From the IMG/VR virus record IMGVR_UViG_3300045988_016268, positions 1 through 18,408 of that record: a stretch of 18,408 nucleotides of DNA; one strand, written 5' to 3'. Shown one piece after another: positions 1 to 18,408 of this stretch. The DNA is from a virus. The first letter of the stretch is position 1. Each line of letters begins with the position of its first letter. Below the pieces are notes generated by a model that made no database searches, had not been told where the DNA came from, and was given only the letters and a program-made list of their open reading frames with translations. Both the position numbers and the translations under genes were made by a program.

Positions 1-296
1 CAGGGGAGGGGTCCCAGCAGCTAGCTTTTTTCCATAACTGCTCTGTTGTGTGTGTTGCTGTCGCTCTCTGTTCTGTGTTTTTTTGTTGTCGTTTCTGTTG
101 TGTTTTTTTGCCCCGTCTCTGGTTCTTCTTGTGTTTTGCTGGCTTTTTTATTGTCGTTTCTGCTTGTTGTTTTGTCTGCGTTTTTTATCTCGTTGTTTTT
201 TATCGTTTTTTGTGTTGTTCGGCGTGTTGTGTTTTGTGGTGGTGTATTATATTAATTATCAACCAAGGAATGTAGAAAGGATGGTAGTTGAGATGA
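1..296. repeat. Left inverted terminal repeat (ITR-L), 296 bp, exact reverse complement of 18113..18408
   Basis: Base-by-base comparison of the two ends. Identity runs from nt 1 to nt 296 (...ggatggtagttgaga) and the first mismatch is nt 297 (t) versus the complement of 18112 (g). All three reading frames give identical ORF translations at both ends in the supplied track. Confidence 0.97.
215..256 (+). promoter_or_regulatory. Putative inward-facing early promoter inside ITR-L (AT-rich TATTATATTAAT box preceded by TG)
   Basis: This is the only AT-rich box in the ITR (tgTATTATATTAATTATC at 243..260). It lies about 25-35 nt upstream of the RBS and ATG at 281/293. TTGTTC (215..220) and TTGTGG (233..238) are imperfect -35 candidates with non-ideal spacing. 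Confidence 0.3.
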
Positions 297-3380: not shown

Positions 3381-4595
3381 CTAGAAGTTCGGCGGCGCGC
3401 TGGTGCCGTCCCATACATTCAACAGCGAGTAGACGGTATTATAGCGTGTCCCGTATGGCCCGAACGGGGGCGTATTGAGGATATTATTATACAGTTGTGT
3501 AAGCGATGAAGCATGAGGCACGTTCAACGCGCCAGCCGGGCTTTGGTGATAAGCACTCGTCCACAGTATTTGCATTTTCGCGTCACCATACATCTGTGGG
3601 TAACTCTCGTAATCCTCAGCGAACTGATTACGCTGGCCCTGCCGTGATTCCGTGCGCCTCGCCCACGTCTGGAACGCCGCGACTTCGCTACCGGTCATCG
3701 CCCTGTCGAACTTGCCGCCTGATTCCATGAGCGCGGCGATGTTCGGCGCGGCGGCGGCAAACGCCTCATATCCTACAGCGTCCACCGCCCTCATTGCATT
3801 CAAGACCTGCAAGCGGCGTCCAAAACTCCATTGCGCGATGCCGATACCCTGATTGTTTGGTTCGACAGCATCCCAGCGTAATGATGATTCAACGGTACCG
3901 ATGACATAGAGCGCGTATGAGCTTTTCCCGTCGCCTACGCTTGGCGTGCCCTGACCTTGGTCGGCGTCCGGCTGACCTGTGCCGCCGCGATATACCCACG
4001 TCTGGGCGGCTGACTTATAGAAAATGGCTTGCGATGATGTCGTGCCCGAGCCACTGTGATATACGAGGTTATCGCCCTGTAGTTGTATCCATGCGGAGAT
4101 GTCGCCGTCCACGTTCACGCCCGGATTATCACCGCCCGTCGGGTTATCGCCGGATTCCGGCGGTTCCGGCAATGCCGTGGGATGCAGATAACCGAGAAGC
4201 TGTGACCCCTTCGCGAGCGGTAGTGTTTGATGCACGGCGGGCGTTGGGTTTTGCGTCAACACGTCGATGCTGTCGCCTTGGACACCACCCCATACGATGG
4301 CCACGTGACTGCCGGGGTAGTTTTGACTGCCGAACCTCCAAAACACGACATCCCCCATGCCGGGCGTATAGTTGGCGTCTTTTTTCTCAAAAACACGCCC
4401 CACGGCGGACGTGGTGGGGAACATGATGTAATTGCCCGCCGCGTAACCTGTCGGGGTGATGCAATCACCTAACGACAGATTGTAATTATCCATGCAGTAT
4501 TTTGCCCACAGGTCCCAACATTGGGCACCGAAAACCCCGTCCATGTCCCAGTACTGGTTTTGGGTACGTTCCAACCATGCTTGTACGTCTACCAT
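3381..4595 (-). CDS. Tail-associated peptidoglycan hydrolase (phi29 gp13 position): N-terminal CHAP peptidase plus C-terminal lytic-transglycosylase-like domain
   Basis: CHAP Cys and His motifs are GAQCWDLWAKY and GSHVAIVW. The C-terminal TVESSLRWDAV...GIGIAQWS resembles the SLT-type ES...GLMQ signature. A Pro/Gly/Asp linker joins the two domains. Its position between the fibres and the ATPase matches the phi29 order. Confidence 0.75.
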   Translation of the reverse strand: MVDVQAWLERTQNQYWDMDGVFGAQCWDLWAKYCMDNYNLSLGDCITPTGYAAGNYIMFPTTSAVGRVFEKKDANYTPGMGDVVFWRFGSQNYPGSHVAIVWGGVQGDSIDVLTQNPTPAVHQTLPLAKGSQLLGYLHPTALPEPPESGDNPTGGDNPGVNVDGDISAWIQLQGDNLVYHSGSGTTSSQAIFYKSAAQTWVYRGGTGQPDADQGQGTPSVGDGKSSYALYVIGTVESSLRWDAVEPNNQGIGIAQWSFGRRLQVLNAMRAVDAVGYEAFAAAAPNIAALMESGGKFDRAMTGSEVAAFQTWARRTESRQGQRNQFAEDYESYPQMYGDAKMQILWTSAYHQSPAGALNVPHASSLTQLYNNILNTPPFGPYGTRYNTVYSLLNVWDGTSAPPNF

Positions 4596-4604
4596 AGTAT
4601 TAGT

Positions 4605-4634
4605 ATACCCCGCCCGGAATGCCGGACGGGGTAT
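4605..4634 (-). promoter_or_regulatory. GC-rich hairpin directly upstream of the tail-lysin start codon
   Basis: ataccccg (4605..4612) pairs with cggggtat (4627..4634), and ccgg (4614..4617) pairs with ccgg (4622..4625), with one mismatch. On the minus strand the hairpin ends 9 nt before the ATG at 4595 and contains the only G-rich SD-like sequence. No U-tract follows on the minus strand. Confidence 0.5.
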
Positions 4635-4657
4635 GTTTTCACGTGAAACATGAAAAC
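4635..4657. repeat. Copy 1 (imperfect) of the GTTTCACGTGAAAC palindrome family
   Basis: The sequence is gttttcacgtgaaacatgaaaac. The perfect 12-bp palindrome tttcacgtgaaa lies at 4637..4648. One extra T distinguishes it from the other copies. An outer inverted repeat pairs gttttc (4635..4640) with gaaaac (4652..4657). The copy is intergenic. Confidence 0.9.
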
Positions 4658-4710
4658 TTCCAATACGGTTACACCATACGGTTGCCGTCCGTGGTGGTGT
4701 TACGTTGGTG

Positions 4711-5622
4711 TCAGATTACAAAATAAGAGAGTTGCAGTGTCTGTTTCAGCTGAGTGTTTGTCTTGATTGTTCCCTGACAATAGAAAGATACGACCCCATC
4801 TCCGGTGATACTAATATTGCATGGCCCGGAGTCATTACCATACGTGAACGGATAGGAATTTATAAAGCCGTTCGGTCGATATCCTTCCGGCATTGTCCCG
4901 ATAATGAGTGAGCCGGGGTTCACGTTCGACGTACAGTTAGCGTTGGAGTGCCCGTCTGGCGAACCGAAACGCACCATGATGTTGACGAATTTTGACAGCG
5001 GTGAGTAATATACCGTCCATGATGCGTTAGAAAAATGATTAGTCAGCACGTTAGTTCGCTGAACCAATGCCGTCGCTGATTGTCCCGAGGTTTTCAGGCT
5101 GGTTAATTCTTCCTGTACGTTCGTCGCCGCTGTCGTCGCGTTTGTCGCTTCAGTGTGGATTTGCTGTGCGGTGCCCGAGTATCCGCCCTGCTTGGTAAAC
5201 GTCGTGTCGGCCTGCGCTTTTGTGTACACGTCGGCGGCGTTTGCCTTGCCGTCAACCGTGCCGGACAGCGAGGACACGGTGCCCTGTAATGCCGTCAATG
5301 CGGTGTTTTCGGCCTTGCCGTTAATCGTGGACATAAGTGCTTGCGCGGTTGGCTCTGAGGTCACGCCAAGCGCGGTAAAATATGATTCCTGCGCGGCAAT
5401 ATCACTCTTATTAGTCTGCGCCAATGATAGAGCGTTATCCGCCGTGCTTTTCGCCGTATTGGCGGTACTTGCCGCGGTGGTCGCGTCCGTCGCGTTGCGG
5501 TACATCTGCGAGTCGATTTTACTCATGTCCGCTGTGTAGTCGCCGCGCCATGACGGTTTATCGTCCGGGCTGTCCCCGAACTGGCTGAGATTATAATGAG
5601 GGGTTTTATTGATACTACTCAT
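4711..5622 (-). CDS. Tail fibre / receptor-binding protein 1
   Basis: The N-terminal motif HYNLSQFGDSPDDKPSWRGDYTADMSKIDSQMY is shared with the adjacent gene. An Ala/Thr-rich predicted coiled shaft follows, then a compact C-terminal domain. The RBS is GAGGAA. The gene overlaps the upstream gene by 8 nt. Confidence 0.7.
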   Translation of the reverse strand: MSSINKTPHYNLSQFGDSPDDKPSWRGDYTADMSKIDSQMYRNATDATTAASTANTAKSTADNALSLAQTNKSDIAAQESYFTALGVTSEPTAQALMSTINGKAENTALTALQGTVSSLSGTVDGKANAADVYTKAQADTTFTKQGGYSGTAQQIHTEATNATTAATNVQEELTSLKTSGQSATALVQRTNVLTNHFSNASWTVYYSPLSKFVNIMVRFGSPDGHSNANCTSNVNPGSLIIGTMPEGYRPNGFINSYPFTYGNDSGPCNISITGDGVVSFYCQGTIKTNTQLKQTLQLSYFVI

Positions 5623-6562
5623 GAGAGGATTCCTCGCTTTCAGTATTACGGGTAGGCGTCCCTACCCGAACAATATTATAGTTGTCGGAATATTGTGTGT
5701 CCAGTTGTGTGGCGGTCAATCCCGTAGTGGACGGTACAGATTGCGATAGCGCCTGCTCTAACGCGGATACACGAGCAACGAGAGTATCATATGTATTCAC
5801 TGTTACGTAATTGGCTAAATCTGATATTTTCGCGAATGTTCGCCATGGTGCCCAAGAGTTGTGATAATTACGTCTCATATAGATGTTAGAATCAGAGTCG
5901 TTTGAAAACACTATTTCCAATATAGCAAGAGCCGATACTCTGAGTTTAAAACATATTCCCTCTACGTTTGCATGCGGTTTTGTGCCCTTAGAGCCGTTTG
6001 CTGCATGATATATTTTACCTATTGTTGATTCGTCGATAGAATCGTAATCTAATTGCGATGTCGGCAATGGATTAAAAAATAAACCACCTTGAAAAACTCC
6101 TAATGGACTGCCGCCCGTACCGTCGCCCGCCAGCGTGGCATCATGCGCAACCGCCGTCAATCCGCCCGAGCTGCTGTCACCCACATAGCTAATAGTGACC
6201 TGATTGCCCGACGTTTCGATATTGATACCGCTTCCCGCTTTGATGTCGCCCGCCGTCAACCGGTCGGCTATCGCCGCCGCGAGGGCTTGCGTTACGCTCT
6301 CCGTAGTTGCGTACCCATCGAGACTGGGAATGTCCTCGGTTCGGGCTATCGTATCCGCCACGCCCAAATAGCTATCGGCGGTGCCGTCGCCGGTAAGGTC
6401 GGCGGTATGCTCTACCGTGGTCATGCCGCCCGCCTGTGACGCGGCGTAGATTGCCGAGTCAATCTTGGACATGTCCTCATTGTAATCGCCGGTATAGGTT
6501 GGGCGGTCATCCTCCGTATACTGGGATAATCCGTAGTGCTCGGTGTGGTTGGTGGCGGTCAT
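5615..6562 (-). CDS. Tail fibre / receptor-binding protein 2 (paralogous N-terminus)
   Basis: The true start is taken as ATG 6562 (MTATNHTEHYGLSQYTEDDRPTYTGDYNEDMSKIDSAIY), preceded by AGAGGGG and forming an ATGA overlap with the upstream stop. LxGDGTxxSxLGV fibre repeats occur twice. The C-terminal domain is low in GC. Confidence 0.7.
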   Translation of the reverse strand: MTATNHTEHYGLSQYTEDDRPTYTGDYNEDMSKIDSAIYAASQAGGMTTVEHTADLTGDGTADSYLGVADTIARTEDIPSLDGYATTESVTQALAAAIADRLTAGDIKAGSGINIETSGNQVTISYVGDSSSGGLTAVAHDATLAGDGTGGSPLGVFQGGLFFNPLPTSQLDYDSIDESTIGKIYHAANGSKGTKPHANVEGICFKLRVSALAILEIVFSNDSDSNIYMRRNYHNSWAPWRTFAKISDLANYVTVNTYDTLVARVSALEQALSQSVPSTTGLTATQLDTQYSDNYNIVRVGTPTRNTESEESSHE

Positions 6563-7200
6563 GGTCGCACCCCTCTGTTCTCGAAGTTCGATACGGTCGG
6601 GTTGCGCTGAACATACTTGGCGTCCGCGTCGCCCTCGGTCAGGTAAATGTCTGCCGGTTCGCCCTCGGGGATACTCTTGCCGTAAGGGAACTGCGAACGT
6701 CCCGGAAAATCGCCCGGCACGCAATTGTCTACAGCGGTTGCGCGTAAATCATATTCACGCGCGGACAACCCCAGAGCGTCGTACATAGATGCCTTAAGCT
6801 CCATGTCATCATAATCCCCCCAAAACAGTCCATGATTACGGGCGTTATCGTACATTCCATCAAGAACTGTTTGCAGGGCGTCCTGTCTGCCATATACCGG
6901 CGACCACGCTAAACCTGTGACATGCGACTGTTCAATAAGTCTGATAAGTTCTTCGCGTAGAGCGGCCATCTGCTTGAGCAGATTATCGGCCATATTCTTG
7001 ATGTCCTGATTATTGGCGTCAATCGCTTTGTTCACCGACTCAACCAAGGTGTTGAAGTCGGATTGCAAGGTGTCAAGATTATGGCGTAGGCATTCAATCA
7101 ACTGCAATGTCGTCAGTCCGTCCCGATAGGTGAACGGAACGGACGTGGGCACCCCGTCAAACAGGCGTTGCCGTGGAATCAGCGCGTTAATGGCAACCAT
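6559..7200 (-). CDS. Tail or appendage structural protein with a central coiled coil (function inferred from position)
   Basis: ATG 7200 is preceded by GGGAG, 2 nt after the upstream stop. A heptad-like segment reads LQSDFNTLVESVNKAIDANNQDIKNMADNLLKQMAALREELIRLIEQ. The gene lies between the lower collar and the fibres. Confidence 0.5.
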   Translation of the reverse strand: MVAINALIPRQRLFDGVPTSVPFTYRDGLTTLQLIECLRHNLDTLQSDFNTLVESVNKAIDANNQDIKNMADNLLKQMAALREELIRLIEQSHVTGLAWSPVYGRQDALQTVLDGMYDNARNHGLFWGDYDDMELKASMYDALGLSAREYDLRATAVDNCVPGDFPGRSQFPYGKSIPEGEPADIYLTEGDADAKYVQRNPTVSNFENRGVRP

Positions 7201-7202
7201 GA

Positions 7203-7997
7203 TTACTCCCATTCTCCGTAGTTATGGCAGTTACTGAAAATAGTATCATACGAGCCCCATATCTGCATGAAACACGGTTCGAGACTCCGCACGACTTCCA
7301 TATCCACATTGATAATCGCATTGCGATATTCGGTAATGAGGCTCATTGCAGACTGAGACCGGCCCGACGTGTGGGATGAACTCCTGCCGTCTGTCGCGTC
7401 ATGTTGCCATTCCGTGCTTGACGTGCTATGCGATTGCGACGTGGTGCCTTGCGTGCTATGGCTACTGCCGTCCGTATCCGCTTGCGCCTGATTGGCGTGA
7501 GTCGCATACCGAGCGAAGTCGCCTTGTACACCTGTTGCCGGAACCTCAGAATCATATGACTGGGACTTGGTGCTACTTGAACTAGTGCCGTCCGATATGC
7601 TTTTGGTCGAACTATCCTGAGACGCGCTGGTTTTGCCGCTGGACTGGGCTACCGTGTTGGATGTGTTTTCACTGGTCATTTCCACGGTGTTCAGCGGGTC
7701 GTATTTCAATGCTAGCGTCCGATAACGCTCATTAAAATACGGCATGATTTCCGCCATCGTCATCCCCAAATAGAAGATGAATTGTTGCGCGGTTTCCTGT
7801 CCTATCTCCCTAAGCGCGTAATGACGAACGATTTTCCCGTTCAATTCGGCACGATGGTTCTCATCGTAAATCGGGTAATAGTCGGCGCTGAGATGCAGTT
7901 TGGCGTCCGTGTCGTAGCCCAATGCAATGAGGTTGCCGAGGGTCTCAGTATACTCCCCCGGCGTTGCCATTGCATAGGCGCTAAAATCCTGTGCCAC
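7203..7997 (-). CDS. Lower collar protein (phi29 gp11 position) with a Ser/Thr-rich internal region
   Basis: GTG start at 7997 is preceded by GGAGGTG and shares 1 nt with the portal stop. The gene lies directly downstream of the portal, and its size (264 aa) is close to gp11. The call rests mainly on synteny. Confidence 0.55.
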   Translation of the reverse strand: MAQDFSAYAMATPGEYTETLGNLIALGYDTDAKLHLSADYYPIYDENHRAELNGKIVRHYALREIGQETAQQFIFYLGMTMAEIMPYFNERYRTLALKYDPLNTVEMTSENTSNTVAQSSGKTSASQDSSTKSISDGTSSSSTKSQSYDSEVPATGVQGDFARYATHANQAQADTDGSSHSTQGTTSQSHSTSSTEWQHDATDGRSSSHTSGRSQSAMSLITEYRNAIINVDMEVVRSLEPCFMQIWGSYDTIFSNCHNYGEWE

Positions 7998-8947
7998 TAT
8001 AATACACCTCCGATACCTGCATCATACGAGGCGGGCATATCGATATCAGTCGTACCACTGGCGCTGGAATCCAGCGCGTTAGGTACGCCGGAGCTTTGCG
8101 CGTCCGCATACTCAACCCAGACATTAAGAGATGGCCACAAACGGTTTATTTGGGTTGCCGCCTCCTGCCGCGCCTTGAGAAAACTCAGGCGGAACACGTC
8201 CGTTTTCTCATTGGCCTGCGCCACCTCATCCGATATGAGCCGTTCCTTTTTCTCGGTGCCGCTGGACTGGATGCCCAGATACCCCAGTACCTCGTTGGTC
8301 ACTTGCGTTTTCTGCTGGATGAACTTGTCCAACAGGTACGGGGTGGTGTTGGGCCACGGCTGGAACATGCTACCGGGGTCAAGCGAATCATAGCCGACGA
8401 TATAGTCCTGCCCGTCCTGCCGCTGTTGTAGCATGTTCTGCACGGTCAGCTTGGTACGCGGGTCGGCGGTGATAATGGTCGGAAGCTTCAGACTCTCCAA
8501 GTTCACATCATACGCCTTATCAATATCGGCAAGACGCCGTGCATACTGCCATAGAATATCCTTGAAACTCATGCGCATACGATTATCCCAAATGGGGATG
8601 CACTCCCGGCCCGCCTTGAGTTGCTTGTAATGATAGTTGACTCCGACCGGCTCGAATGAGGTGGGGTTATTATACACGTTCAGCCGGCCTTGATATCCGG
8701 CCTGCGTGGCGAGGAACCTGCCGATACGTTTGTCCTCGAAAAACAACGCGCAACCGTATTCACACAGACACATTTCCAACCATCGTTCATCAACGGTGGG
8801 CGGCAGTCCCCGCCAGCTGAACCGGTTCAACGCCAGTTCCTCCAGCAAATGATAGTACATTGCATCAAGGTCGGCGGCGCGCGCCTTCGCGTAGTTGCCA
8901 CGCGGATGCAACGCGCCCCCGACCCGATTTCTTTTAGACCTGCTCAT
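7997..8947 (-). CDS. Portal / upper collar connector protein (phi29 gp10 family)
   Basis: 316 aa. The N-terminus is basic. [33 protein letters not shown] parallels phi29 gp10 [54 protein letters not shown] parallels [21 protein letters not shown] (phi29 sequence recalled from memory). Confidence 0.88.
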   Translation of the reverse strand: [316 protein letters not shown]

Positions 8948-8959
8948 ACTACCATCATA

Positions 8960-11212
8960 TCACTCATAACTGATGCCCGGCAGTGGATCATTGTCCGCCA
9001 AATCGGTCATTCCGATATCATCAGGACTGTTCCATACGGTAGCCCCAGACTCGAACACGCCCTTGATGGTCTGCCGATACTGCTCGGGCAAATCACCTCG
9101 CACATAGCATTCTTGCATTTGCCAATATGAGAACTTGGTCATACATTCCAGCGATTGCGGCGGCGTGATGAAACGCTGGACAAAATACCCGTAGCGTAAC
9201 ATGTACTCTCCGACGCTACGCAGAGCTGAGGGTGCGCACGTCTTGAATCGAACCAACACCCCGACAATGCCGTTTGCAAGATTGAATCCGTCTCCGCCGA
9301 TAGCACCGGACGTGGTAGGGGGCGTCAACTGCATTTGCTGGACTTGCGCATTAATCCCGGCGATAGTGTTTTGGTAGTCGCCAAACGCGGAACGTTGCGC
9401 GTAATCCGCGTTCATATCCGCCATATTTTGGGCCAACTGGTTTGAAAGCGCTGTAGTCTGAGAGCCATACGTGTTGGCTTGACTTGTTGTGGCCGCGTTA
9501 GTACTCAGTGAATTGGCAGTGGAAAGTTGGGCGGCGGTATTGTTGATACTGCGGTTCGCTTCGGTGTTTACACCATTCATGACAGCACCGCCTAATGCCG
9601 ATACCGCGCCCCCGACATTACCTGAAGCGGCGTTACCCGCCACCCCGACCACGCCGTTAACCACGTTATTCAGCTGTGCGAGGTCGGCTCGCTGATTGTT
9701 GATATACGTCGTGTTGTCCAGTCCGGTGTTAAGAGCTGTCGCTTGAATTGCGTTATTGGCGTTGCGGTTGCCGATAGCGAGTTTGTTGGCTTGGGTATTG
9801 TACTGGTTTTGCATGGCCGTGGCCGCAAGCGATTGACTAATGCCCATCTGCGCTTTTTGATATGTCCAGTCAGCTGACTGCTGATTATAGGCGCGAGTGT
9901 AGGCACTGTTTGCCATTGCCAACTGAGCACCATTGTTGACTATCACAAATTGAGGGAAATTGCTGATACCAAACGCGGCGTCCAACATTTCTCCGTTATC
10001 AATGGGCAACCCATTGTTTTTATCAAGAGGAGCAATCTCGCTTGCGCCCGCCTTATTGTACCCAACCGGGTAAAAGTTCAAGCGCGCGCCATTGGGTGCG
10101 TAATTATGCACCTCTCTAATAACCAGATTATCGCTTTGGATATTTTCGGGCTTATAGGTGATATTTGTACCGTTCAAGCAAGTGCATTCGACAGTGGAAT
10201 AGGGGTAGCATTTGAGTTTTTTAAGGTTTTTATAACGTTTAGGGATATTAAAATTATCACGAAAATCATTAATGGTAATAATGTCTTCATATCTGCTGGG
10301 CGCATTTGTGGCCGACTGGGGGAAACGGTAGATACGATCATTTAATTCCGGGGGGAGTGTTCTCCCAAATAGCTTATCTACGACATAGCCAGATTGCTTA
10401 AGAAAGTCATCGTCTAAAGAGGGTATCATATACATGTTTACAATACCCTGTGTTATCCATGAAAAAGTAGAGCCAACACCCATAAACACTCGGATAGACT
10501 GGATGTCCTTAAAGTACAGTATTTCAGCACCATTGGCCATGTTCTCAAACAGAGAGCCGCCCGCAGTAGTGAGAGACGGTTTTTCCTGACTGCCCGCGTC
10601 CGCTGACAAATCTACCGTGCTCACGACTATTACGCCGTAATTCAGATTTTTCCCGTCCATGCTGATAAGAGACTTGTACTGTTGGTTTACCGTCACCATT
10701 TCGCTACCGGTGTCCAGCCCTTCGGGTAGTGCGAGATAACTGCGGCCATAGTCGGTCATCTGGTTTTCGTTGGCAATGCCGATATGGCCTCGCACCACAT
10801 AACATGAGCCGAACCTAAGCACATGCTGGAATGACTGCCAAACGTCCAACTGCACGGTGAGCTGAGTAGTGTATGCATTGATGTAATCCACGTGGTTGAT
10901 AAAGTAATACCAATATCGCGGCGACTCCAAGTCGGGATAATCGTTATACACCACGACATAGTTGTAGTTGGACGCCTCGTTGAATGGCAGTTCGACGCGC
11001 ACGGGTTGCCCGAACATGTGCATGACTCCATGTACCCTGTCAACACCGGGCTGTCGGGCAAACCATTCCTGTTGTTTCTGCGGTGACTCGAACCGGGCTA
11101 GGTCACGGTAACTGCTATCCCACGGCACGTTACAGAGTTTCAACGACGTGTTTGGCGTCCATTGCGCCCAGTTAAACGTCGCCTCGACGTTAGGGTTGAT
11201 ATCTCTCAGCAT
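8960..11212 (-). CDS. Tail knob / distal tail tube protein (phi29 gp9 family), enlarged to 750 aa
   Basis: The N-terminal region (CNVPWDSSYRD...QQEWF...YWYYFINHVDYINAYTTQLTVQLDVWQSF) parallels phi29 gp9 (DVPFSNDYKNT...NWF...KWFYAFVTELEF...EIDVLQTW). The gene lies between the capsid and portal genes as in phi29. It contains an Asn/Gln/Ala/Thr-rich region with a Gly/Ala/Val hydrophobic loop. Confidence 0.8.
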   Translation of the reverse strand: MLRDINPNVEATFNWAQWTPNTSLKLCNVPWDSSYRDLARFESPQKQQEWFARQPGVDRVHGVMHMFGQPVRVELPFNEASNYNYVVVYNDYPDLESPRYWYYFINHVDYINAYTTQLTVQLDVWQSFQHVLRFGSCYVVRGHIGIANENQMTDYGRSYLALPEGLDTGSEMVTVNQQYKSLISMDGKNLNYGVIVVSTVDLSADAGSQEKPSLTTAGGSLFENMANGAEILYFKDIQSIRVFMGVGSTFSWITQGIVNMYMIPSLDDDFLKQSGYVVDKLFGRTLPPELNDRIYRFPQSATNAPSRYEDIITINDFRDNFNIPKRYKNLKKLKCYPYSTVECTCLNGTNITYKPENIQSDNLVIREVHNYAPNGARLNFYPVGYNKAGASEIAPLDKNNGLPIDNGEMLDAAFGISNFPQFVIVNNGAQLAMANSAYTRAYNQQSADWTYQKAQMGISQSLAATAMQNQYNTQANKLAIGNRNANNAIQATALNTGLDNTTYINNQRADLAQLNNVVNGVVGVAGNAASGNVGGAVSALGGAVMNGVNTEANRSINNTAAQLSTANSLSTNAATTSQANTYGSQTTALSNQLAQNMADMNADYAQRSAFGDYQNTIAGINAQVQQMQLTPPTTSGAIGGDGFNLANGIVGVLVRFKTCAPSALRSVGEYMLRYGYFVQRFITPPQSLECMTKFSYWQMQECYVRGDLPEQYRQTIKGVFESGATVWNSPDDIGMTDLADNDPLPGISYE

Positions 11213-11233
11213 ATTATCCCTTTCACAAAAAAT

Positions 11234-11265
11234 AAGGGGAGTGTTTCACGTGAAACACTCCCCTT
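11234..11265 (-). terminator. Intrinsic terminator after the major capsid gene. It is a 32-bp perfect palindrome whose tip is copy 2 of GTTTCACGTGAAAC.
   Basis: aaggggagtgtttcac pairs with gtgaaacactcccctt and every pair from 11234 to 11265 was checked. On the minus strand it is followed by attttttgtgaaa. It lies 8 nt after the capsid stop at 11273. Confidence 0.85.
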
Positions 11266-11272
11266 TATTATA

Positions 11273-13003
11273 TCATGCGGTCACGGTCACGCTCTTCTTG
11301 CCGGATACGCCGAACAATGTGGCGGTGATGTCGGACGAGCCTTGCTTGACGCCCGTCACAAGGCCCGACTCGGACACCGTGGCGTTGCCCGGGGTACCGG
11401 ACGTCCATGCGGCCTGCATGGTAACGTCGGCGGTTCGCCCGTCAATCATGGTCGCCTTAGCGGTCGCCTGCGCCGTATGGCCAACGGTCGTGCTCGGGAC
11501 GGTTACGGCAATGGATGCGATAATCGACGGGTTGAATCCGATGACACCATCACCGACCACCGGCACGTTCAGGGCGGCGGACACGGTGCCCGGCACCTCA
11601 GGTGTCGCCGGATTCGTATACAGCGCGGTTGCGGTAACCGGGATAGTGGTGTTCGGTTCGTCGAGTCCGACCACCAGTACGCCGGTGGGCGAAATATAGG
11701 TGTAATCGCTCTTCGACTTAACGGTGTCACCGATAGCGTACTCAACCGCGTCCGAACGGAACGTGGCCGTGCCATCATTACTGATAGTCGTATCGGCGGT
11801 GACCTGCACAGCGCCGCCACGCGCCACATCCTTCGGCGTAGTCGCGCCACCGCCATACATGGCAAGCTTGAGTTGGAAGGTCGGCGTCTCGGCCACCGTA
11901 CCGCTCGGAGCCACCACGTTGGCGGTGGAACCCGCGCCCGTCCAGAACATCACGGCCGGGGCGAAACCAGACACCGAAATAATGTGCTGGACGTGCAGAT
12001 AATGGTTGACCGAGTTGATGTTCACCGGGTTCGTCTGCTGGGTCATCTCGTTAATGACAGGAATGTCAATCAGGAACTTGTCAGTAGTAAGAATGGCTTG
12101 CACGCCATCCATACCGAAACGGTCCTGCGGAATGACGATAATCCGGTCGATGGTCGGTTCCGCGTCCGTACGCTGGAACACCGTGGCGAGGCCCTGCACG
12201 TCAAGCGCAGACTTGACTTCAGGCGAACAGAATAGTACGAGTTCGTCGGGGCGGGCGAACGTCGGCATGTGACGCGCATTGTATCGGGTGGAAACGAATT
12301 TCAGCGTGTCGGCCCATGCGCGAATCTGGCGCAACATGTCGCGCGCGTCCGTTTCCGTCGAACCCATGTCGTTAAGGTCATGCTCCATGTGGACACGCCA
12401 ATATCCGCCGAGCTTCGCATACTCGACAAACTGGTGGCACATAGCCTCGAACAAGTCAACCTCGGCCGCATTATAGCAGGAGGTGAGAATCTGCGAGGTG
12501 AGCGAGGCCAGACCGGTTTCGGAGGTGAACGCACGTTGGAGTGTTTTATCCTCCGTGGTAGCAGGGTAGAAGTGGGTAAAGTCAAGACGGTGGTAGAGGC
12601 TATCCACGTCGATTTTCCATTTGCGGAAATTGTCCGCGCCCAAGTATTCCGCGTCCGGGTCGTACACCTGTGCGAGCGGCATACCTACGGCGATTTCCTG
12701 CCACGTGTCGCCATACGCCTGAGATGCGCGCTGGAAAACACTCAGCGGGTTGTTCCAACGCCACGTGTTCACGTAAGTACCGCCGATACGGTTCACCAAG
12801 GCCGAGTAAAACTCGTTCTTAAGCTGGGTGCTGGACATGAGGGTGGCCATCTGGCGGTCCATGTTCATCTGAGTGGCCGAAGGCATACGCCTCTGATACT
12901 CGGGAGATGCCTCATTGCGAATCATGTTGAGAATCTGGGCGTTATTGAACTCGGTGAGCGGTCGCAACTGCTGCTTCGGCGTCGCCACTGGAGTGGTTGA
13001 CAT
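11273..13003 (-). CDS. Major capsid protein (phi29 gp8-like) with C-terminal Ig-like Big_2 domain(s)
   Basis: 576 aa. A strong AGGAAGGA RBS precedes the start. The gene lies directly after the scaffold gene and before a strong terminator. The C-terminal IASIAVTVPSTTVGHTAQATAKATMIDGRTADVTMQAAWTSGTPGNATVSESGLVTGVKQGSSDITATLFGVSGKKSVTVTA is a typical Big_2 fold signature, as in phi29 gp8. Confidence 0.85.
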   Translation of the reverse strand: MSTTPVATPKQQLRPLTEFNNAQILNMIRNEASPEYQRRMPSATQMNMDRQMATLMSSTQLKNEFYSALVNRIGGTYVNTWRWNNPLSVFQRASQAYGDTWQEIAVGMPLAQVYDPDAEYLGADNFRKWKIDVDSLYHRLDFTHFYPATTEDKTLQRAFTSETGLASLTSQILTSCYNAAEVDLFEAMCHQFVEYAKLGGYWRVHMEHDLNDMGSTETDARDMLRQIRAWADTLKFVSTRYNARHMPTFARPDELVLFCSPEVKSALDVQGLATVFQRTDAEPTIDRIIVIPQDRFGMDGVQAILTTDKFLIDIPVINEMTQQTNPVNINSVNHYLHVQHIISVSGFAPAVMFWTGAGSTANVVAPSGTVAETPTFQLKLAMYGGGATTPKDVARGGAVQVTADTTISNDGTATFRSDAVEYAIGDTVKSKSDYTYISPTGVLVVGLDEPNTTIPVTATALYTNPATPEVPGTVSAALNVPVVGDGVIGFNPSIIASIAVTVPSTTVGHTAQATAKATMIDGRTADVTMQAAWTSGTPGNATVSESGLVTGVKQGSSDITATLFGVSGKKSVTVTA

Positions 13004-13026
13004 GATGAGAAAATCCTTCCTAATTA

Positions 13027-13368
13027 TTAGTCTTCAAACAAATCATCGAATGTACTGTAGGTGCCGTTGTAGTCATCGTCGGTCATTTCCGTGGCATTCG
13101 GTTCTTCGTCGCCGTTCGGCCCATCGTTCAGCACGCGGTCGGCGGCGGCGTCGCGCATCTCTTCAATGGTTTTGGAGAGTTCGGCCACGGTCGCCTCCAA
13201 GGCGCTGAGACGGTTGGCCATGTCGGCGTCCTTGTCGTCGCCCGCGTCTTCCGGTTCGCCGTCATCCTGCGTTTCAGGCTCCGGGTTCGGCGTATTGTCG
13301 TCGGCGGTCGTGTCCGGCTCGGTGTCGGGCGTGGTGTCCGGCTTATCGTCGGTTTCGGTGTCGTCCAT
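13027..13368 (-). CDS. Putative scaffolding protein (phi29 gp7 position), extremely acidic
   Basis: 113 aa. The RBS is AAGAGG. A central helical segment reads ANRLSALEATVAELSKTIEEMRDAAADRV, and both tails are Asp/Glu/Thr/Pro-rich. The gene lies immediately upstream of the capsid gene. Function is assigned by position and composition only. Confidence 0.55.
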   Translation of the reverse strand: MDDTETDDKPDTTPDTEPDTTADDNTPNPEPETQDDGEPEDAGDDKDADMANRLSALEATVAELSKTIEEMRDAAADRVLNDGPNGDEEPNATEMTDDDYNGTYSTFDDLFED

Positions 13369-13388
13369 AATTACCTCTTAAAGTAAGT

Positions 13389-13416
13389 GGCATGACGGCA
13401 ATCACGCCGTCATGCC
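13389..13416 (-). promoter_or_regulatory. Perfect 11-bp stem hairpin between the polymerase and scaffold genes
   Basis: ggcatgacggc (13389..13399) pairs with gccgtcatgcc (13406..13416) around the loop aatcac. On the minus strand it ends about 20 nt before the scaffold ATG and is followed by acttacttt, a weak U-tract. It could be a terminator, an attenuator or the 3' end of a small RNA. Confidence 0.55.
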
Positions 13417-13554
13417 GGTTTGCTAGGCTGTGCGGGTTCCCTCGCCGTCGCTGGGCGTTGGCTACGCACGTCTACATCCGACCGAATCGCCTTACCGACT
13501 TGCCTCACGGTCGGGCCATCGAATCGACTTGGGACGCACACCCCGCTACCGACT

Positions 13555-13563
13555 ATTATAGCA
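13555..13563 (-). promoter_or_regulatory. Extended -10 promoter element TGCTATAAT overlapping the polymerase stop codon (candidate late promoter)
   Basis: The minus strand reads tatgcTATAATagtcgg, a perfect TATAAT with TGn immediately upstream. ATGACG is a weak -35 candidate 15 nt upstream. The predicted start is near 13548. Confidence 0.4.
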
Positions 13564-15016
13564 TAAAAGTGTGGCCGTCATCATTGATATGGCGTGAACC
13601 GGGTATAAACTCATCATAGGGGATGGGGGCGGCTCGATGCACGCCACTCAGACGCATTACCGTGTCGCCATTCGTTTCCACCCCGCAATATTTGCGATTG
13701 CCTAGGATGCGGAGCTTCTCGTAGGTATGGTCGTTTTTCCACTCTCCTAGTTTCCGGTCATCTGTTTCCATGTCTTCGGGCGCGTCCAATCCTTCCAATA
13801 TCATGCCATCGGTATCGGCGTAGAGCACGCGGTCGGCGTTCGCGTTCATCGCACGGGATAGTATCCGCCGTCCATAGGCGTTGACATATGCGGCGGTCGG
13901 CAACCATGCCAGACTGTTGGCCGACTCGGGTTTGTCCACGGTAAAATCCACACCACCATCCACGGACGGTTTTGGATGCAACATGGGCCGGTAGAGCGAG
14001 GCCCCGAACTTTCCCACCAGCGAGTTCAATAACAGTTTCGCCATCTGTTTGCGCTCCCCCGTCGCGGTCTGTTTCACGTGAAACCATTTGTCCACATACG
14101 TATAATAAAGTTCGTGTGATTTGCGGAACTTCCAGCCGCCGACATGCTCCCACATGTGGACGTCATAGTTTTCGGTCAGCGTTTCCCAATCCACGTCCGC
14201 GACTGGCATAGTAACGACGCCGAGCGTGCTATCCAAGCGTTCACCCTCATACCCCCATACAGGTAGGATATTGGTGAGTGTCGCCGTTTTGCCCGCTTTC
14301 AACCTTGCATCAAACGTGATGACGTCGATATGCAGCGGATAATCAGCATCATAACGATACTTCCCGTCATACCACACGGGGGCACCTACCGGCATGGGGG
14401 CATCGCGCATGATACTTGGGTAGAGACTGTTCACATCCCAGCTTCGGCAATCCCGGTATTCGCCCGACTTACTGTATACTATCGCTCCATAGTACGCGGG
14501 GCGCATCCGATGATAATCATCCCTATCCAATGACGGAAAATGGCGTTTGAATTCGGCGTAATCGCCATCAATGTAGTCGGTCATCGCCATTGATGCTATG
14601 GTCGTGCCCCTGAGGTTCAGGGCGGCGCATTCCTGTGCGATATTCCACGTGGTTTCCAAATCATCCACACCGCCAAATGTTTCACGTGAAACATTCAAAC
14701 CATCGTCGCGCGTGACATTGCGCACGTCCAGAAAATCCACGGTGATGCCGCCCATGCGCACGCGAAAACTGTAAAAATGCCCGCGAATGTTGAACGTGCC
14801 CCATACACCGTCTTTGCTTGGGTTCGGTTGTAATGGGAGTCGTTTCAACAGTTCGGCGGCTATGGGCTTGATATCCTGCCACCCGTGAGCACACCATACG
14901 CGCGTATGATAATCGAGCATGGTGAGACGGATGACGGCGTTCACCGTCAACGGTTCCGTGCCGTCATCCGTCAATAGTGTTGCGCCGTCCGTTGCCGCAG
15001 TTCGACGCTCTTTCAT
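13556..15016 (-). CDS. Protein-primed family-B DNA polymerase (phi29 gp2 type)
   Basis: Motif A is WDVNSLYPS, motif B is KLLLNSLVGKF, motif C is VLYADTDG and KxY is GNRKYCG. The TPR1-like segment YDGKYRYDADYPLHIDVITFDARLKAG parallels phi29 FEGKYVWDEDYPLHIQHIRCEFELKEG. The start is taken as ATG 15016 (MKERR), preceded by AAGGATGGAG, 14 nt after the upstream stop. The ORF track start at 15058 would overlap the upstream gene by 28 nt. Confidence 0.93.
   Translation of the reverse strand: MKERRTAATDGATLLTDDGTEPLTVNAVIRLTMLDYHTRVWCAHGWQDIKPIAAELLKRLPLQPNPSKDGVWGTFNIRGHFYSFRVRMGGITVDFLDVRNVTRDDGLNVSRETFGGVDDLETTWNIAQECAALNLRGTTIASMAMTDYIDGDYAEFKRHFPSLDRDDYHRMRPAYYGAIVYSKSGEYRDCRSWDVNSLYPSIMRDAPMPVGAPVWYDGKYRYDADYPLHIDVITFDARLKAGKTATLTNILPVWGYEGERLDSTLGVVTMPVADVDWETLTENYDVHMWEHVGGWKFRKSHELYYTYVDKWFHVKQTATGERKQMAKLLLNSLVGKFGASLYRPMLHPKPSVDGGVDFTVDKPESANSLAWLPTAAYVNAYGRRILSRAMNANADRVLYADTDGMILEGLDAPEDMETDDRKLGEWKNDHTYEKLRILGNRKYCGVETNGDTVMRLSGVHRAAPIPYDEFIPGSRHINDDGHTFML
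14071..14084. repeat. Copy 3 of the GTTTCACGTGAAAC palindrome, inside the polymerase gene
   Basis: Exact 14-mer. On the coding strand it is read as tgg ttt cac gtg aaa cag (W F H V K Q). Confidence 0.95.
14676..14695. repeat. Copy 4 of the palindrome, extended to 20 bp (AATGTTTCACGTGAAACATT), inside the polymerase gene
   Basis: Exact 20-bp palindrome. On the coding strand it is read as aat gtt tca cgt gaa aca ttt (N V S R E T F), a different frame from copy 3. Confidence 0.95.
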
Positions 15017-15030
15017 GACTCCATCCTTTT

Positions 15031-15975
15031 TTAGTGTCGTGCCGCGTTGGCCATCCATTCATCAAGTCGTGTTTCTACATCGCCTGCATCCGCCTTGGTT
15101 TCCCATTTATGTGTTTTATCATTATACCACGCGGCTTCCCGCACAACGGTGCTGAAATTCGTGTTGTTTATCAGCCATCGTTTTTGACGGTTCGACAGGG
15201 ATGCGAATTTTTGGGCTATGCTGTAATCGAATGCCTCAAGCCGTTGCGAGACCCTATCAAAATCCGAACCCCCCCCGCCTCCGGAAATCTGTCTAGTGCC
15301 TGCCTGCAATGGCGCTCGACCTACAAGCCCGGCGTATTCAAGCAACTCTCGTTCAAGTTTCCTTCTACCCCCTTCTCGTATCATTATGCGCGCGTGGCTT
15401 ATGCCGCGCTCCGAGCCGAACACGTTCGCACGGTTGCGTGTGAGTTCGTCGCGCGCCGAACCGCCGACCGTGTGAGTGCCCAACACGTCAAAGGGGGATT
15501 CTCCGGCGCGTTCCATTTCACGGATTTCGCCCACCGTGTAGCTGGCCATGCTCAACGCCTCGAATTGTTGGGCGCGTTTGATTTTCCGCCGTGCCTCGAT
15601 GCGGCGGCGCTGTTGCTGTCGCAACGTCTTCCGACGTTTCGGCGGGGCGGCGGCGATTTCCGCGTCGGTAATCAGCGGACGCGCCGCCATTTCACGGTCA
15701 AATTTCGTAATATGGACGTCGGGCACGACCTGATACGGCTCGCTGTCCCGCGCCCTTAAGGCTTGCTGTTGTTCCCCGAATTCCTGTCCGATACGGCGGG
15801 CAACCTGTTCGAGTTGTTGGGCGCTGAGTTTTCCGAGAAACGTTTCGGTGATTTGCTTGGGGAGATGTCCGGTGCTGTAATCTCTGACCGCTTGCTCTCG
15901 GCGTACCTGTGCCGACCTGATGGCGGCATTACGTTTCAGGCTGTTAACACGTCGATTGTTTTTACGTTTTGCCAC
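15031..15975 (-). CDS. Putative terminal protein (replication primer), assigned by position and composition
   Basis: 314 aa with a GTG start preceded by AAGGAACGAGGG. The N-terminus MAKRKNNRRVNSLKRNAAIRSAQVRR and internal stretches (PPKRRKTLRQQQRRRIEARRKIKR) are very basic. The gene lies immediately upstream of the polymerase and is translationally adjacent to it, as in phi29 (gp3-gp2), in a genome with long ITRs. I found no recognisable sequence similarity. Confidence 0.55.
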   Translation of the reverse strand: MAKRKNNRRVNSLKRNAAIRSAQVRREQAVRDYSTGHLPKQITETFLGKLSAQQLEQVARRIGQEFGEQQQALRARDSEPYQVVPDVHITKFDREMAARPLITDAEIAAAPPKRRKTLRQQQRRRIEARRKIKRAQQFEALSMASYTVGEIREMERAGESPFDVLGTHTVGGSARDELTRNRANVFGSERGISHARIMIREGGRRKLERELLEYAGLVGRAPLQAGTRQISGGGGGSDFDRVSQRLEAFDYSIAQKFASLSNRQKRWLINNTNFSTVVREAAWYNDKTHKWETKADAGDVETRLDEWMANAARH

Positions 15976-17936: not shown

Positions 17937-18128
17937 TCAAACAGTAAACTCTTCACCATACTCAGCATAATGCGCAATCAAATACGCATTAAAAAAATCC
18001 TGTTCAGAACAAGGAGCAAGAGCCACATGCAAGCCCTCACGAATATCATCATCCATAAGAGCCACAGCACTGTCATAATCGACCTCACGCCCATCCCAAT
18101 TAATAACCTTACTCATCTCAACTACCAT
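17937..18128 (-). CDS. Hypothetical small acidic early protein whose start codon lies inside ITR-R
   Basis: Translation is MVVEMSKVINWDGREVDYDSAVALMDDDIREGLHVALAPCSEQDFFNAYLIAHYAEYGEEFTV. It shares the ITR-encoded RBS and MVVEM with the gene at 281..478. The alternative ATG is at 18116. The protein is strongly acidic. Confidence 0.6.
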   Translation of the reverse strand: MVVEMSKVINWDGREVDYDSAVALMDDDIREGLHVALAPCSEQDFFNAYLIAHYAEYGEEFTV

Positions 18129-18408
18129 CCTTTCTACATTCCTTGGTTGATAATTAATATAATACACCACCACAAAACACAACACGCCGAACAACACAAA
18201 AAACGATAAAAAACAACGAGATAAAAAACGCAGACAAAACAACAAGCAGAAACGACAATAAAAAAGCCAGCAAAACACAAGAAGAACCAGAGACGGGGCA
18301 AAAAAACACAACAGAAACGACAACAAAAAAACACAGAACAGAGAGCGACAGCAACACACACAACAGAGCAGTTATGGAAAAAAGCTAGCTGCTGGGACCC
18401 CTCCCCTG
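18113..18408. repeat. Right inverted terminal repeat (ITR-R), 296 bp
   Basis: Exact reverse complement of 1..296. The window ends ...gctagctgctgggacccctcccctg, which is the reverse complement of the first bases caggggaggggtcccagcagctagc. Confidence 0.97.
18153..18194 (-). promoter_or_regulatory. Mirror copy of the putative ITR promoter, facing inward from the right end
   Basis: Identical sequence to 215..256 by ITR symmetry. It lies upstream of the minus-strand gene that starts at 18128/18116. Confidence 0.3.

Follow-up and report, generated by a model that had tools for sequence, protein, structure and literature searches.

Why does one short palindrome recur four times in a small viral genome? 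The window, the whole 18.4-kb stretch of viral DNA analysed here, contained four matches to the 12-mer TTTCACGTGAAA (starts 4637, 11244, 14072 and 14680), and the exact 14-mer started at 11243, 14071 and 14679. All four copies reported by the first-pass annotation were relocated in the sequence. Its view that their number lies beyond chance was borne out by dinucleotide-preserving shuffles, none of 200 of which gave four matches to TTTCACGTGAAA (mean 0.06 per shuffle). Each of the four TCACGTGA octamers in the window, and each of the four GTGAAA hexamers on its plus strand, was part of the palindrome. The unit common to the copies was 16 bp long, TGTTTCACGTGAAACA, an extension of the 12- and 14-mer core that is its own reverse complement, a dyad symmetry suited to a ParB dimer.

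The sequence of the repeated palindrome predicts that it is the canonical parS of bacterial chromosomes, where ParB/Spo0J loads. The B. subtilis parS consensus is TGTTNCACGTGAAACA, and the Hyphomonas site is exactly TGTTTCACGTGAAACA. Copies 2 and 4 fitted the consensus at 16 of 16 positions, copy 3 had one mismatch and copy 1 carried a 1-nt insertion. The 16-mer occurred in 27 papers, and the 20 listed among them all dealt with ParB/parS or the related Noc. The Noc-binding sites (NBS) of B. subtilis resemble the motif in that they too are 16 bp long and recognised by a CTP-dependent member of the ParB family. Their consensus, ATTTCCCGGGAAAT, departs from parS at the specificity-determining bases; NBS identity was rejected because the window motif matches parS and not this consensus. 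The earlier description, which did not recognise parS, had seen selection on a dyad-symmetric core, had named a site for a dimeric regulator and a DNA-level signal among its candidate roles, and had identified the motif with none of the LexA, Rex, CRP/FNR, cre, Fur or IdeR boxes; all of this agrees with the match to parS. The accompanying proposal of an operator held in part: a DNA site for a dimeric protein remains, while a transcriptional operator in the usual sense does not, since the motif is a predicted parS.

The window is a complete 18.4-kb genome of a phi29-like, protein-primed podophage. Its gene content was phi29-like (DNA polymerase B, a putative terminal protein, phi29-type SSB, collar proteins and a gp16-type ATPase), and its inverted terminal repeats (ITRs) presumably form the ends of a protein-primed linear genome with a terminal-protein cap. 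Scans against PHROGs, Pfam and NCBIfam found no ParA or ParB in the window, so the sites could act only via a host protein. Several small early phage proteins had no assigned function. The nearest isolated relatives infect Bifidobacterium, and all conserved proteins were closest to those of Bifidobacterium podophages; judged by these relatives, the host is probably Bifidobacterium, a non-sporulating genus. A published survey reported ParABS homologues together with consensus parS sites for 12 gut genomes, among which was one Bifidobacterium. Coordinates are given in Table 1.

Table 1 Predicted parS copies and associated features of the window.
Feature	Position	Strand	Description
Left inverted terminal repeat	1..296		perfect 296-bp ITR
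Predicted parS copy 1, degenerate, TGTTTTCACGTGAAACA	4634..4650		extra T in left arm, right half-site intact
Intrinsic-terminator-like element after major capsid gene	11226..11265	-	terminator scan and sequence
Predicted parS copy 2, perfect TGTTTCACGTGAAACA	11242..11257		tip of terminator-like hairpin after major capsid gene
Predicted parS copy 3, TGTTTCACGTGAAACC on + strand	14070..14085		one mismatch at outermost base
Predicted parS copy 4, perfect TGTTTCACGTGAAACA	14678..14693		within DNA polymerase gene, codons 122-127, N-V-S-R-E-T
Right inverted terminal repeat	18113..18408		perfect 296-bp ITR

Copy 1 was located between the fibre gene (4711–5622, minus strand) and the CHAP hydrolase gene (3381–4595, minus strand), where it adjoined a GC-rich hairpin at 4606–4634. 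The hairpin that carries copy 2 (11234–11265) had a 14-bp stem and a 4-nt loop and was followed by ATTTTTTG on the minus strand; as had been described, these 32 nt form a perfect palindrome with copy 2 at its centre. The reported extension of copy 4 beyond the core was also found, its symmetry running to AATGTTTCACGTGAAACATT. Copies 3 and 4 were positioned within the DNA polymerase ORF (13556–15058, minus strand), copy 3 at codons 325–330 (W-F-H-V-K-Q), and were read in two different frames (WFHVKQ and NVSRET). The first-pass annotation had correctly placed two copies at gene junctions, after the fibre and capsid genes. It had overlooked the 16-bp unit, the position of copies 3 and 4 inside the polymerase ORF, and the fact that the genes flanking all four copies are on the minus strand.

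The motif is under selection at the DNA level and is conserved with positional turnover in the clade of the window. Three or four sites were present in 50 of 62 near-complete relatives and none in one of the 62, and the clade held 227 sites in 1.26 Mb. By contrast, the BP1-like sister clade had no site at ≤2 mismatches in 80 contigs (1.29 Mb). A search of related phages for the motif and its positional conservation had been suggested previously. At homologous positions, sites were found in 68 of 80 relatives for copy 3 (≤2 mismatches), 70 for copy 4, 33 for copy 2 and 18 for copy 1. Thirty of the 33 sites at the copy-2 position were perfect, though the stem and T-tract around them vary. At the capsid/tail junction, 30 relatives had the terminator-tip site, 35 had a site in the tail gene, none had both and six had neither; 65 of these 71 relatives retained a site at one or other of the two positions.

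Replacement of amino acids at variable positions gave rise to the polymerase copies. Copy 3 occupies the three variable positions of YVDxWxxxK that separate its conserved W from its conserved K, where F-H-V occurred in this clade alone. The left half-site of copy 4 came from an amino-acid replacement by comparison with sister phages. V-S-R-E-T was encoded both by copy 4 and by the alternative tail-gene site, and relatives carry other residues there. In a codon scan of the polymerase, synonymous diversity was low at copy 4, whose five-codon interval ranked 22nd of 409, and was not reduced at copy 3.

From their sequence and conservation, we consider it probable that the four copies are parS sites and that through them the phage exploits the ParB of its host for positioning, segregating or retaining the phage genome. 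Host ParB would nucleate at the phage parS, bind CTP, close to a clamp and slide along the 18-kb genome. For ParB to accumulate, the DNA must be closed or capped at its ends, and the terminal-protein-capped ends of the phage genome would stop the clamps from running off. The partition complex would then couple the phage DNA to the host partners of ParB, namely ParA, SMC and, in actinobacteria, the polar DivIVA scaffold. If lytic growth were delayed, the non-integrating phage genome would be positioned and inherited with the host origins and not lost, on the same principle as the carriage of phi29 DNA into Bacillus spores. The ParB biochemistry and the phi29/Spo0J precedent are taken from the literature, and the identity of the host, ParB binding and the benefit to the phage are what we infer. 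Several observations speak against this explanation: the left half-site of copy 1 is broken by the insertion, one near-complete relative is site-free, synonymous diversity is not reduced at copy 3, and no extra contig of the phage turned up in the genome search described below. The sites are not essential, since parS is absent from the sister clade and from most phi29-like phages.

The closest precedent is phi29, for which five parS sites are reported; they are bound by Spo0J, which assists the segregation of phi29 DNA to the prespore (Meijer et al. 2005, as cited in PMC2731898). Repression of phi29 is done by Spo0A, not Spo0J. Our scan of phi29 recovered four copies of TGTTTCACGTGGAACA and one weak site. 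Both phages are protein-primed podophages of ~19 kb with 4–5 dispersed host parS sites, some within genes and one beside a terminator, and neither has ParA or ParB. They differ in lineage, the capsid proteins being ~27% identical, and in that the likely host of the window phage is a non-sporulating actinobacterium and its genome has no clustered Spo0A boxes. Four TGTCGAA (Spo0A) boxes were present in the window, scattered and all inside ORFs, with ~2 expected by chance by our own estimate; no cluster of them was found near the genome ends or promoters of the window. The window fits the structural pattern of phi29 (dispersed sites, no partition genes) and not its documented spore use with Spo0A boxes. 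The sites are at non-homologous positions in the two phages, indicating independent acquisition.

A phage-borne parS has so far been described as a device only for phi29, and what is new here is the likely non-sporulating host. With such a host, spore entrapment, the only experimentally documented benefit, cannot apply. Among the diverse phi29-like contigs sampled, ~14% (about one in seven) had parS, and it was present in phages of Enterococcus and Glutamicibacter, two hosts that do not sporulate. Many phi29-like phages had one site only, and the sites of other phages were mostly intergenic, with positions flexible across phages and relatives. Conservation of the device in a clade with a likely non-sporulating host, together with its presence in other phages, suggests that the benefit is probably a broader one, be it persistence, positioning or manipulation of the host.

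A broader proposal can be made only tentatively. The clade, abundant human-gut podophages without lysogeny genes whose host is probably the non-sporulating Bifidobacterium, might be kept as a linear protein-capped episome via its three or four parS sites and host ParB, a carrier state with neither integration nor a partition operon. Among the protein-primed phages of Bacilli, Clostridia and Actinobacteria, capture of the host parS might then be a recurrent strategy instead of a sporulation peculiarity of phi29. The phage was absent as an extra contig from 185,579 species-representative genomes, which therefore offered no direct evidence for a carrier state as an episome. If "strictly lytic" gut phages do ride host segregation, this would help to explain the persistence of virulent phages next to their hosts in the gut and, if true, would matter when phages are selected for therapy. 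A natural experiment is available in the contrast of the clade rich in parS with the sister clade that lacks it, and a previously unexplained palindrome becomes a precise, testable interaction, the loading of host ParB on phage DNA.

The sites were also compared with other centromere systems. The chromosomal parS/ParB (Spo0J) systems of Firmicutes, Actinobacteria and Proteobacteria have the identical 16-bp palindrome in multiple copies, tolerated in coding sequence. Unlike them, the window sites have no chromosomal origin or parAB operon nearby; here an 18-kb linear viral genome would borrow the binding protein. The plasmid-prophage N15 is likewise a linear phage genome with four separate palindromic centromere sites (IR1–4), but it is temperate, has its own SopA/SopB and its own site sequence, and its ends are covalently closed hairpins, whereas the window phage has the site of its host, no partition genes and protein-capped ends. 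SGI1 is also a mobile element whose centromere sites belong to a partition system encoded elsewhere, but, as described in PMC10954446, it uses the parABS of an IncC helper plasmid and not a chromosomal one, and is an integrative element and not a virus.

The same sites could serve a different end. Hundreds of replicating phage genomes with three or four parS sites each might act as a sponge that titrates ParB off the host origin, and the ensuing disturbance of host segregation, SMC loading, division or replication control would favour lytic growth. All evidence for parS identity applies equally to this explanation, as does the retention of several copies per genome in a phage without its own ParB; it does not require a dormant state, and the carrier state has no supporting sign. 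We nevertheless regard it as unlikely, as no such effect has been reported for phi29, where the documented role is segregation into the spore. The numerous phi29-like phages with a single site would make a weak sponge, and the gain that a fast-lysing phage would draw from disturbed segregation is not obvious.

It is quite improbable that the sites instead restrain the phage itself, with ParB spreading from the two polymerase sites and the capsid/tail site to form a roadblock or silencer. Abundant host ParB, or a particular state of the cell, would then dampen phage replication and late genes, giving a host-state-dependent delay of lysis. Two of the best-conserved sites do lie inside the polymerase gene and one lies at the boundary before the tail genes, and the plasmid ParB proteins of P1 and F are known to silence by spreading. 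However, chromosomal ParB/Spo0J of B. subtilis hardly alters transcription of the genes that it covers, and the first parS described is inside the spo0J gene itself. The role of Spo0A in phi29 repression and the flexible, mostly intergenic positions noted above also argue against it.

An RNA-level role, with the hairpin GUUUC-ACGU-GAAAC acting in transcript termination or processing, is very improbable for the four copies. Copy 2, at the tip of a 14-bp hairpin with a T-run, is the best terminator-like site after the capsid gene, and the intergenic copy 1 adjoins another hairpin. Only copy 2 has the hairpin and U-run of an intrinsic (Rho-independent) terminator; copies 1, 3 and 4 do not, so termination cannot be the function common to all, and copies 3 and 4, which have no T-run, are embedded well within an essential gene. 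In relatives the sequence is conserved and not pairing alone, the 16-mer staying perfect while the copy-2 stem and T-tract change. Compensatory changes at three symmetric synonymous pairs in copy 4 were weak (Fisher p = 0.02, 0.18 and 0.16, in a test that ignores relatedness), and an Rfam scan gave no match to a structured RNA. The RNA hairpin put forward earlier thus accounts for copy 2 as a terminator tip and leaves the coding copies and the exact identity of the copies unexplained. Equally improbable is an operator of another dimeric regulator, of phage or host, with an accidental likeness to parS: the perfect dyad and the small early proteins without assigned function would suit it, but two copies match the most conserved bacterial centromere sequence at 16 of 16 positions, the same sequence recurs in phi29-like phages that infect hosts of different phyla and have no early genes in common with the window, the sister clade has several of the same early genes yet no site, and two sites are intragenic and far from any promoter.

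The fibre region provided a further pointer to the host, in that a fibre module was common to the window and a BP1-like gut contig. The copy-1 site occurred in MT836241 as well, along with the common fibre module.

The palindrome described in the first-pass annotation was recovered in all four places claimed for it. A scan of the window with the 14-mer GTTTCACGTGAAAC at ≤2 mismatches returned four matches (starts 4636, 11243, 14071 and 14679), three of them exact, against a mean of 0.06 in dinucleotide-preserving shuffles, none of which (0/200) reached four. The 12-mer TTTCACGTGAAA is exact in 4/4 copies, and all window occurrences of the octamer TCACGTGA, like all GTGAAA hexamers on the + strand, fall within motif copies. 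Reading of the flanks extended the unit common to the copies to 16 bp, TGTTTCACGTGAAACA, which is, by sequence, the canonical chromosomal parS, the loading site of ParB (Spo0J). Of 27 papers containing exactly TGTTTCACGTGAAACA, the 20 listed all had ParB/parS or the related Noc protein as their subject, and a review table gives the consensus as TGTTNCACGTGAAACA for B. subtilis, exactly TGTTTCACGTGAAACA for Hyphomonas, and near-identical sequences for other phyla. The earlier reading of a DNA-level site for a dimeric protein thus holds, whereas the operator role proposed with it gives way to a centromere, the parS identity having been missed. Also absent from that annotation was the placement of copies 3 and 4 inside the polymerase ORF, where they are read in different frames. 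Copy 2 forms part of the top terminator-like site after the capsid gene, its 14-bp stem being followed by ATTTTTTG on the - strand.

Coordinates of the parS copies and of other features in the window.
Feature	Position	Strand	Form	Context
Inverted terminal repeats	1-296 and 18113-18408
parS copy 1	4634-4650		one-base insertion in left arm	between last fibre gene and hydrolase gene
Capsid-tail intergenic region	11213-11272
parS copy 2	11242-11257		perfect TGTTTCACGTGAAACA	tip of 14-bp hairpin after capsid gene
Strong hairpin	13389-13416	-	12 bp, GGCATGACGGCG-TGAT-TGCCGTCATGCC, no clear T-run	187-bp gap between polymerase and acidic-protein genes
parS copy 3	14070-14085		one outer mismatch	inside polymerase ORF, TGG TTT CAC GTG AAA CAG
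Sigma-70-like match	14078-14106	+	GTGAAA-17-TATAAT, 10/12	antisense to polymerase gene; -35 hexamer is right half of parS copy 3
parS copy 4	14678-14693		perfect TGTTTCACGTGAAACA	inside polymerase ORF, AAT GTT TCA CGT GAA ACA
Region of lowest synonymous diversity	14984-15058		codons 10-26	first ~25 polymerase codons as called
Putative terminal-protein ORF	15031-15975			upstream of polymerase; its end is overlapped by the preceding region
Mirrored "ORFs"	50-478 / 17937-18359	+ / -	first 81 residues in common	starts fall inside repeat
AcrIC5-matching ORF	17937-18116	-	59 aa, MSKVINWDG...EEFTV	start at inner edge of right terminal repeat

The window spans a complete linear genome, bounded by inverted terminal repeats that are perfect over 296 bp and far exceed in length the units annotated as repeats in phi29 (6 bp) and phiCPV4 (28 bp). 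Nearly all genes lie on the - strand, in the order endolysin, holin, gp16-type packaging ATPase, CHAP hydrolase, two fibre-like genes, lower and upper collar proteins, tail protein, major capsid protein, acidic protein, family-B DNA polymerase, putative terminal protein and phi29-type SSB. This organisation is that of a phi29-like, protein-primed podophage, and the Bifidobacterium isolates BP1, BD811P1/P2 and BadAztec/BadAargau, also podophages, show complete synteny with it. Searches of the window ORFs against PHROGs, Pfam and NCBIfam gave no match to ParA or ParB families, and therefore the sites can act only via a host protein.

The mirrored ORFs share residues only because their starts lie within the repeats, and the longer - strand call, which extends into the repeat, is probably not real. 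The 59-aa ORF matches the Pfam family AcrIC5 (E = 4e-21; 75 bits, cut-off 27); AcrIC5 is an anti-CRISPR against type I-C systems. The strong hairpin between the polymerase and acidic-protein genes may mark the boundary of early and late transcription. Synonymous diversity of the polymerase gene among relatives is lowest at its beginning, and family-profile matches begin only at about residue 147; the true start may be located downstream of the one called, or constraint may act on the overlap with the terminal-protein ORF.

A search of related phages, suggested with the original observation, found the sites kept. In the 80 relatives whose capsid protein is 91–96% identical to that of the window, 50 of the 62 near-complete genomes carry 3–4 sites at ≤2 mismatches and only one carries none; the clade totals 94 perfect parS and 227 with ≤2 mismatches in 1.26 Mb. 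Five position classes account for the clade sites: polymerase site 4 (the position of copy 4, 70/80 relatives), polymerase site 3 (that of copy 3, 68/80), a tail-gene site ~127 nt from the gene start (37 of 80), the terminator tip after the capsid gene (33 of 80) and the post-fibre site (18 of 80). No relative carries the terminator-tip site together with the tail-gene site (n = 71; 30 with the first, 35 with the second, none with both, six with neither). Since no more than a few hundred bases separate the two positions, linkage is partly behind this exclusivity; despite linkage, exactly one junction site is kept per haplotype.

The tail-gene site encodes R-F-V-S-R-E-T-Q where the window has R-F-E-S-P-Q-K-Q-Q, and the tail protein sequence is, judging from these residues, altered so as to carry the parS motif. 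At polymerase site 3, sister phages keep Y-V-D-x-W-x-x-x-K, and the variable trio is F-H-V only in the window's clade, other phages having GDL, SGL, YGR or MEV. The right half of polymerase site 4 derives from conserved E-T-F-G codons, with N-V-S-R in place of T-E-L-F. Synonymous diversity is low at site 4 (rank 22/409 for a 5-codon window) and unremarkable at site 3, and the terminator-tip site is perfect in 30/33 relatives while its stems and T-tract vary. In their patterns of substitution, these positions show selection acting on the DNA motif.

The capsid-tail intergenic region is modular among relatives, with lengths of 60, ~111, ~170 or ~300 bp, and in many of them contains two further conserved hairpins (e.g., 7217-7330 in contig L003). 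One further hairpin, CAAGGCCCGGAGCG...CACGTG...GCTCCGGGCCTTG, has CACGTG or TACGTG at its tip and no parS match beyond that hexamer.

The nearest relatives of the conserved proteins are those of Bifidobacterium podophages (ATPase 49%, hydrolase 55%, tail protein 47%, SSB 53% and capsid protein 37–42% identity), followed by other actinobacterial phages, with Firmicutes phages last. The endolysin is 55% identical to endolysins of B. asteroides siphophages, and the only match in a whole-window Megablast against the phage collection was the fibre module of the BP1-like GenBank gut contig MT836241. Because conserved proteins, endolysin and fibre module all point there, the host is likely a human-gut Bifidobacterium. 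A homology search with the endolysin retrieved members of the phage's own clade alone and was uninformative on the host, and a capsid protein search of 185,579 species-representative genomes returned only an unrelated Ig-domain match. ParABS is reported for actinobacteria in general, and a published survey lists both ParABS homologues and consensus parS for 12 gut genomes, of which one is from a Bifidobacterium.

The best-supported reading of these data is that the phage hitch-hikes on host ParB, with both ParB binding and a benefit to the phage being proposals. Host ParB dimers would nucleate at phage parS, take up CTP and close into sliding clamps. In vitro, accumulation of ParB requires DNA that is closed or capped at its ends, and it is restored in part by a protein bound tightly to a free end; phage ends capped by terminal protein would therefore be expected to hold the clamps. 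A ParB-coated phage genome could then be handled as an origin region, moved by ParA and engaged by SMC, and in actinobacteria it would be tethered near the pole. A non-integrating phage would thereby gain positioning and inheritance while lysis is delayed, by the same logic as phi29 spore entry.

Other roles for the sites appear less credible. That they form a sponge depleting host ParB is improbable, and there is only a slim chance that loaded ParB serves as a brake on the polymerase and on late-gene expression. An operator of an unrelated regulator is unlikely because the motif matches parS exactly and recurs in unrelated phages; the LacI/cre, Rex, CRP/FNR, TnrA, PadR, Zur, AraR and LexA boxes all misfit in spacing or orientation. 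Nor do promoter elements account for the copies: by eye, no copy followed the ECF-sigma -35 element TGAAAC with a matching -10 at the right spacing, the sigma-70-like match at copy 3 lies antisense to the polymerase gene, and promoter-like matches in the window (25) barely exceed the shuffled expectation (~19). An RNA hairpin, also suggested at first, fits copy 2 alone, as a secondary use, and is very improbable as the general role, given the weak symmetric double changes at site 4 (p = 0.02, 0.18 and 0.16, uncorrected) and the lack of an Rfam match.

For phi29 itself, PMC2731898 reports five parS sites and a role of Spo0J in genome segregation into the prespore. Our scan of the phi29 record found TGTTTCACGTGGAACA, the B. 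subtilis site, four times, once just upstream of the annotated bidirectional terminator, plus one weak copy. The window phage resembles phi29 in being a protein-primed podophage with dispersed copies of host parS and no partition genes, but differs in lineage, in site positions and in its likely host biology, with neither sporulation nor Spo0A boxes; a phi29-style cluster of such boxes was not present in the window. Since the parS positions differ from those of phi29, acquisition was independent. In the phage N15, a linear genome likewise carries four separate centromere palindromes, but N15 encodes its own SopAB and has a site sequence of its own; SGI1, which uses a plasmid's parABS system (PMC10954446), is a conceptual parallel.

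The sister clade around BP1 has no parS even at ≤2 mismatches (80 contigs totalling 1.29 Mb, most of them from the same metagenome collection). The exception seen is MT836241, with one parS at the post-fibre position. Its fibre module (8506-11074) and post-fibre region, including parS, are ~80% identical in nucleotides to window 4439-7032, which indicates, on this similarity, exchange of a receptor-binding module between podophages of two clades at just ~37% capsid protein identity. Outside the module, MT836241 is a BP1-like Bifidobacterium phage, 81% identical to BP1.

Among the other phi29-like genomes scanned, parS is present in Goe1 (two), VMY22 (one), CI55P1 (one), gut contig MT835854 (four), C. 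perfringens phage phiCPV4 (seven), Enterococcus phage vB_EfaP_2/Chl-5 (two) and Glutamicibacter phage Voltaire (two), and absent from WhyPhy, Aurora, phi24R, CpV1, Av-1, Cp-1, the Bifidobacterium isolates, Reje, Mendel and Curie. A restriction to phages of spore-formers is refuted by the Enterococcus and Glutamicibacter phages with sites and by phi24R, CpV1 and Aurora without. In a sample drawn blind to parS by packaging-ATPase profile (80 diverse phi29-like contigs, 1.0 Mb, about 50 nucleotide-level clusters), 11 contigs had a site at ≤1 mismatch, giving 22 sites where about 0.01 per Mb would be expected; two of the contigs had six copies each.

The parS motif is textbook knowledge and its phage precedent dates from 2005. 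Conservation of parS in a clade of likely Bifidobacterium phages, with none in the sister clade, is apparently unreported, as is its patchy recurrence over phi29-like phages of non-sporulating hosts; parS and Spo0J are unmentioned in a 2024 review of phi29-like phage diversity, and our literature searches found no report of phage parS outside the phi29 group. Conservation within the clade, absence from the sister clade and non-sporulating hosts together point to a function wider than spore entrapment.

The seven phiCPV4 sites (≤1 mismatch, 18 kb; 4812, 4838, 7846, 7871, 9949, 11824 and 11849) are all intergenic, and six of them form pairs 25–26 bp apart, which the Voltaire pair (8742 and 8761, 19 bp apart) resembles; no mention of paired sites in either phage was found in the literature searched. 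Among the first 120 matches listed for the perfect 16-mer in viral contigs, 20 were phi29-like. Six IMG/VR contigs that are not phi29-like (working labels L096, L110, L111, L113, L151 and L163) carry 3–5 perfect parS within 1–3 kb, with five in about 800 bp in L111, and may represent either phage-plasmids whose ParB is of the chromosomal type or pieces of chromosome from an origin region.
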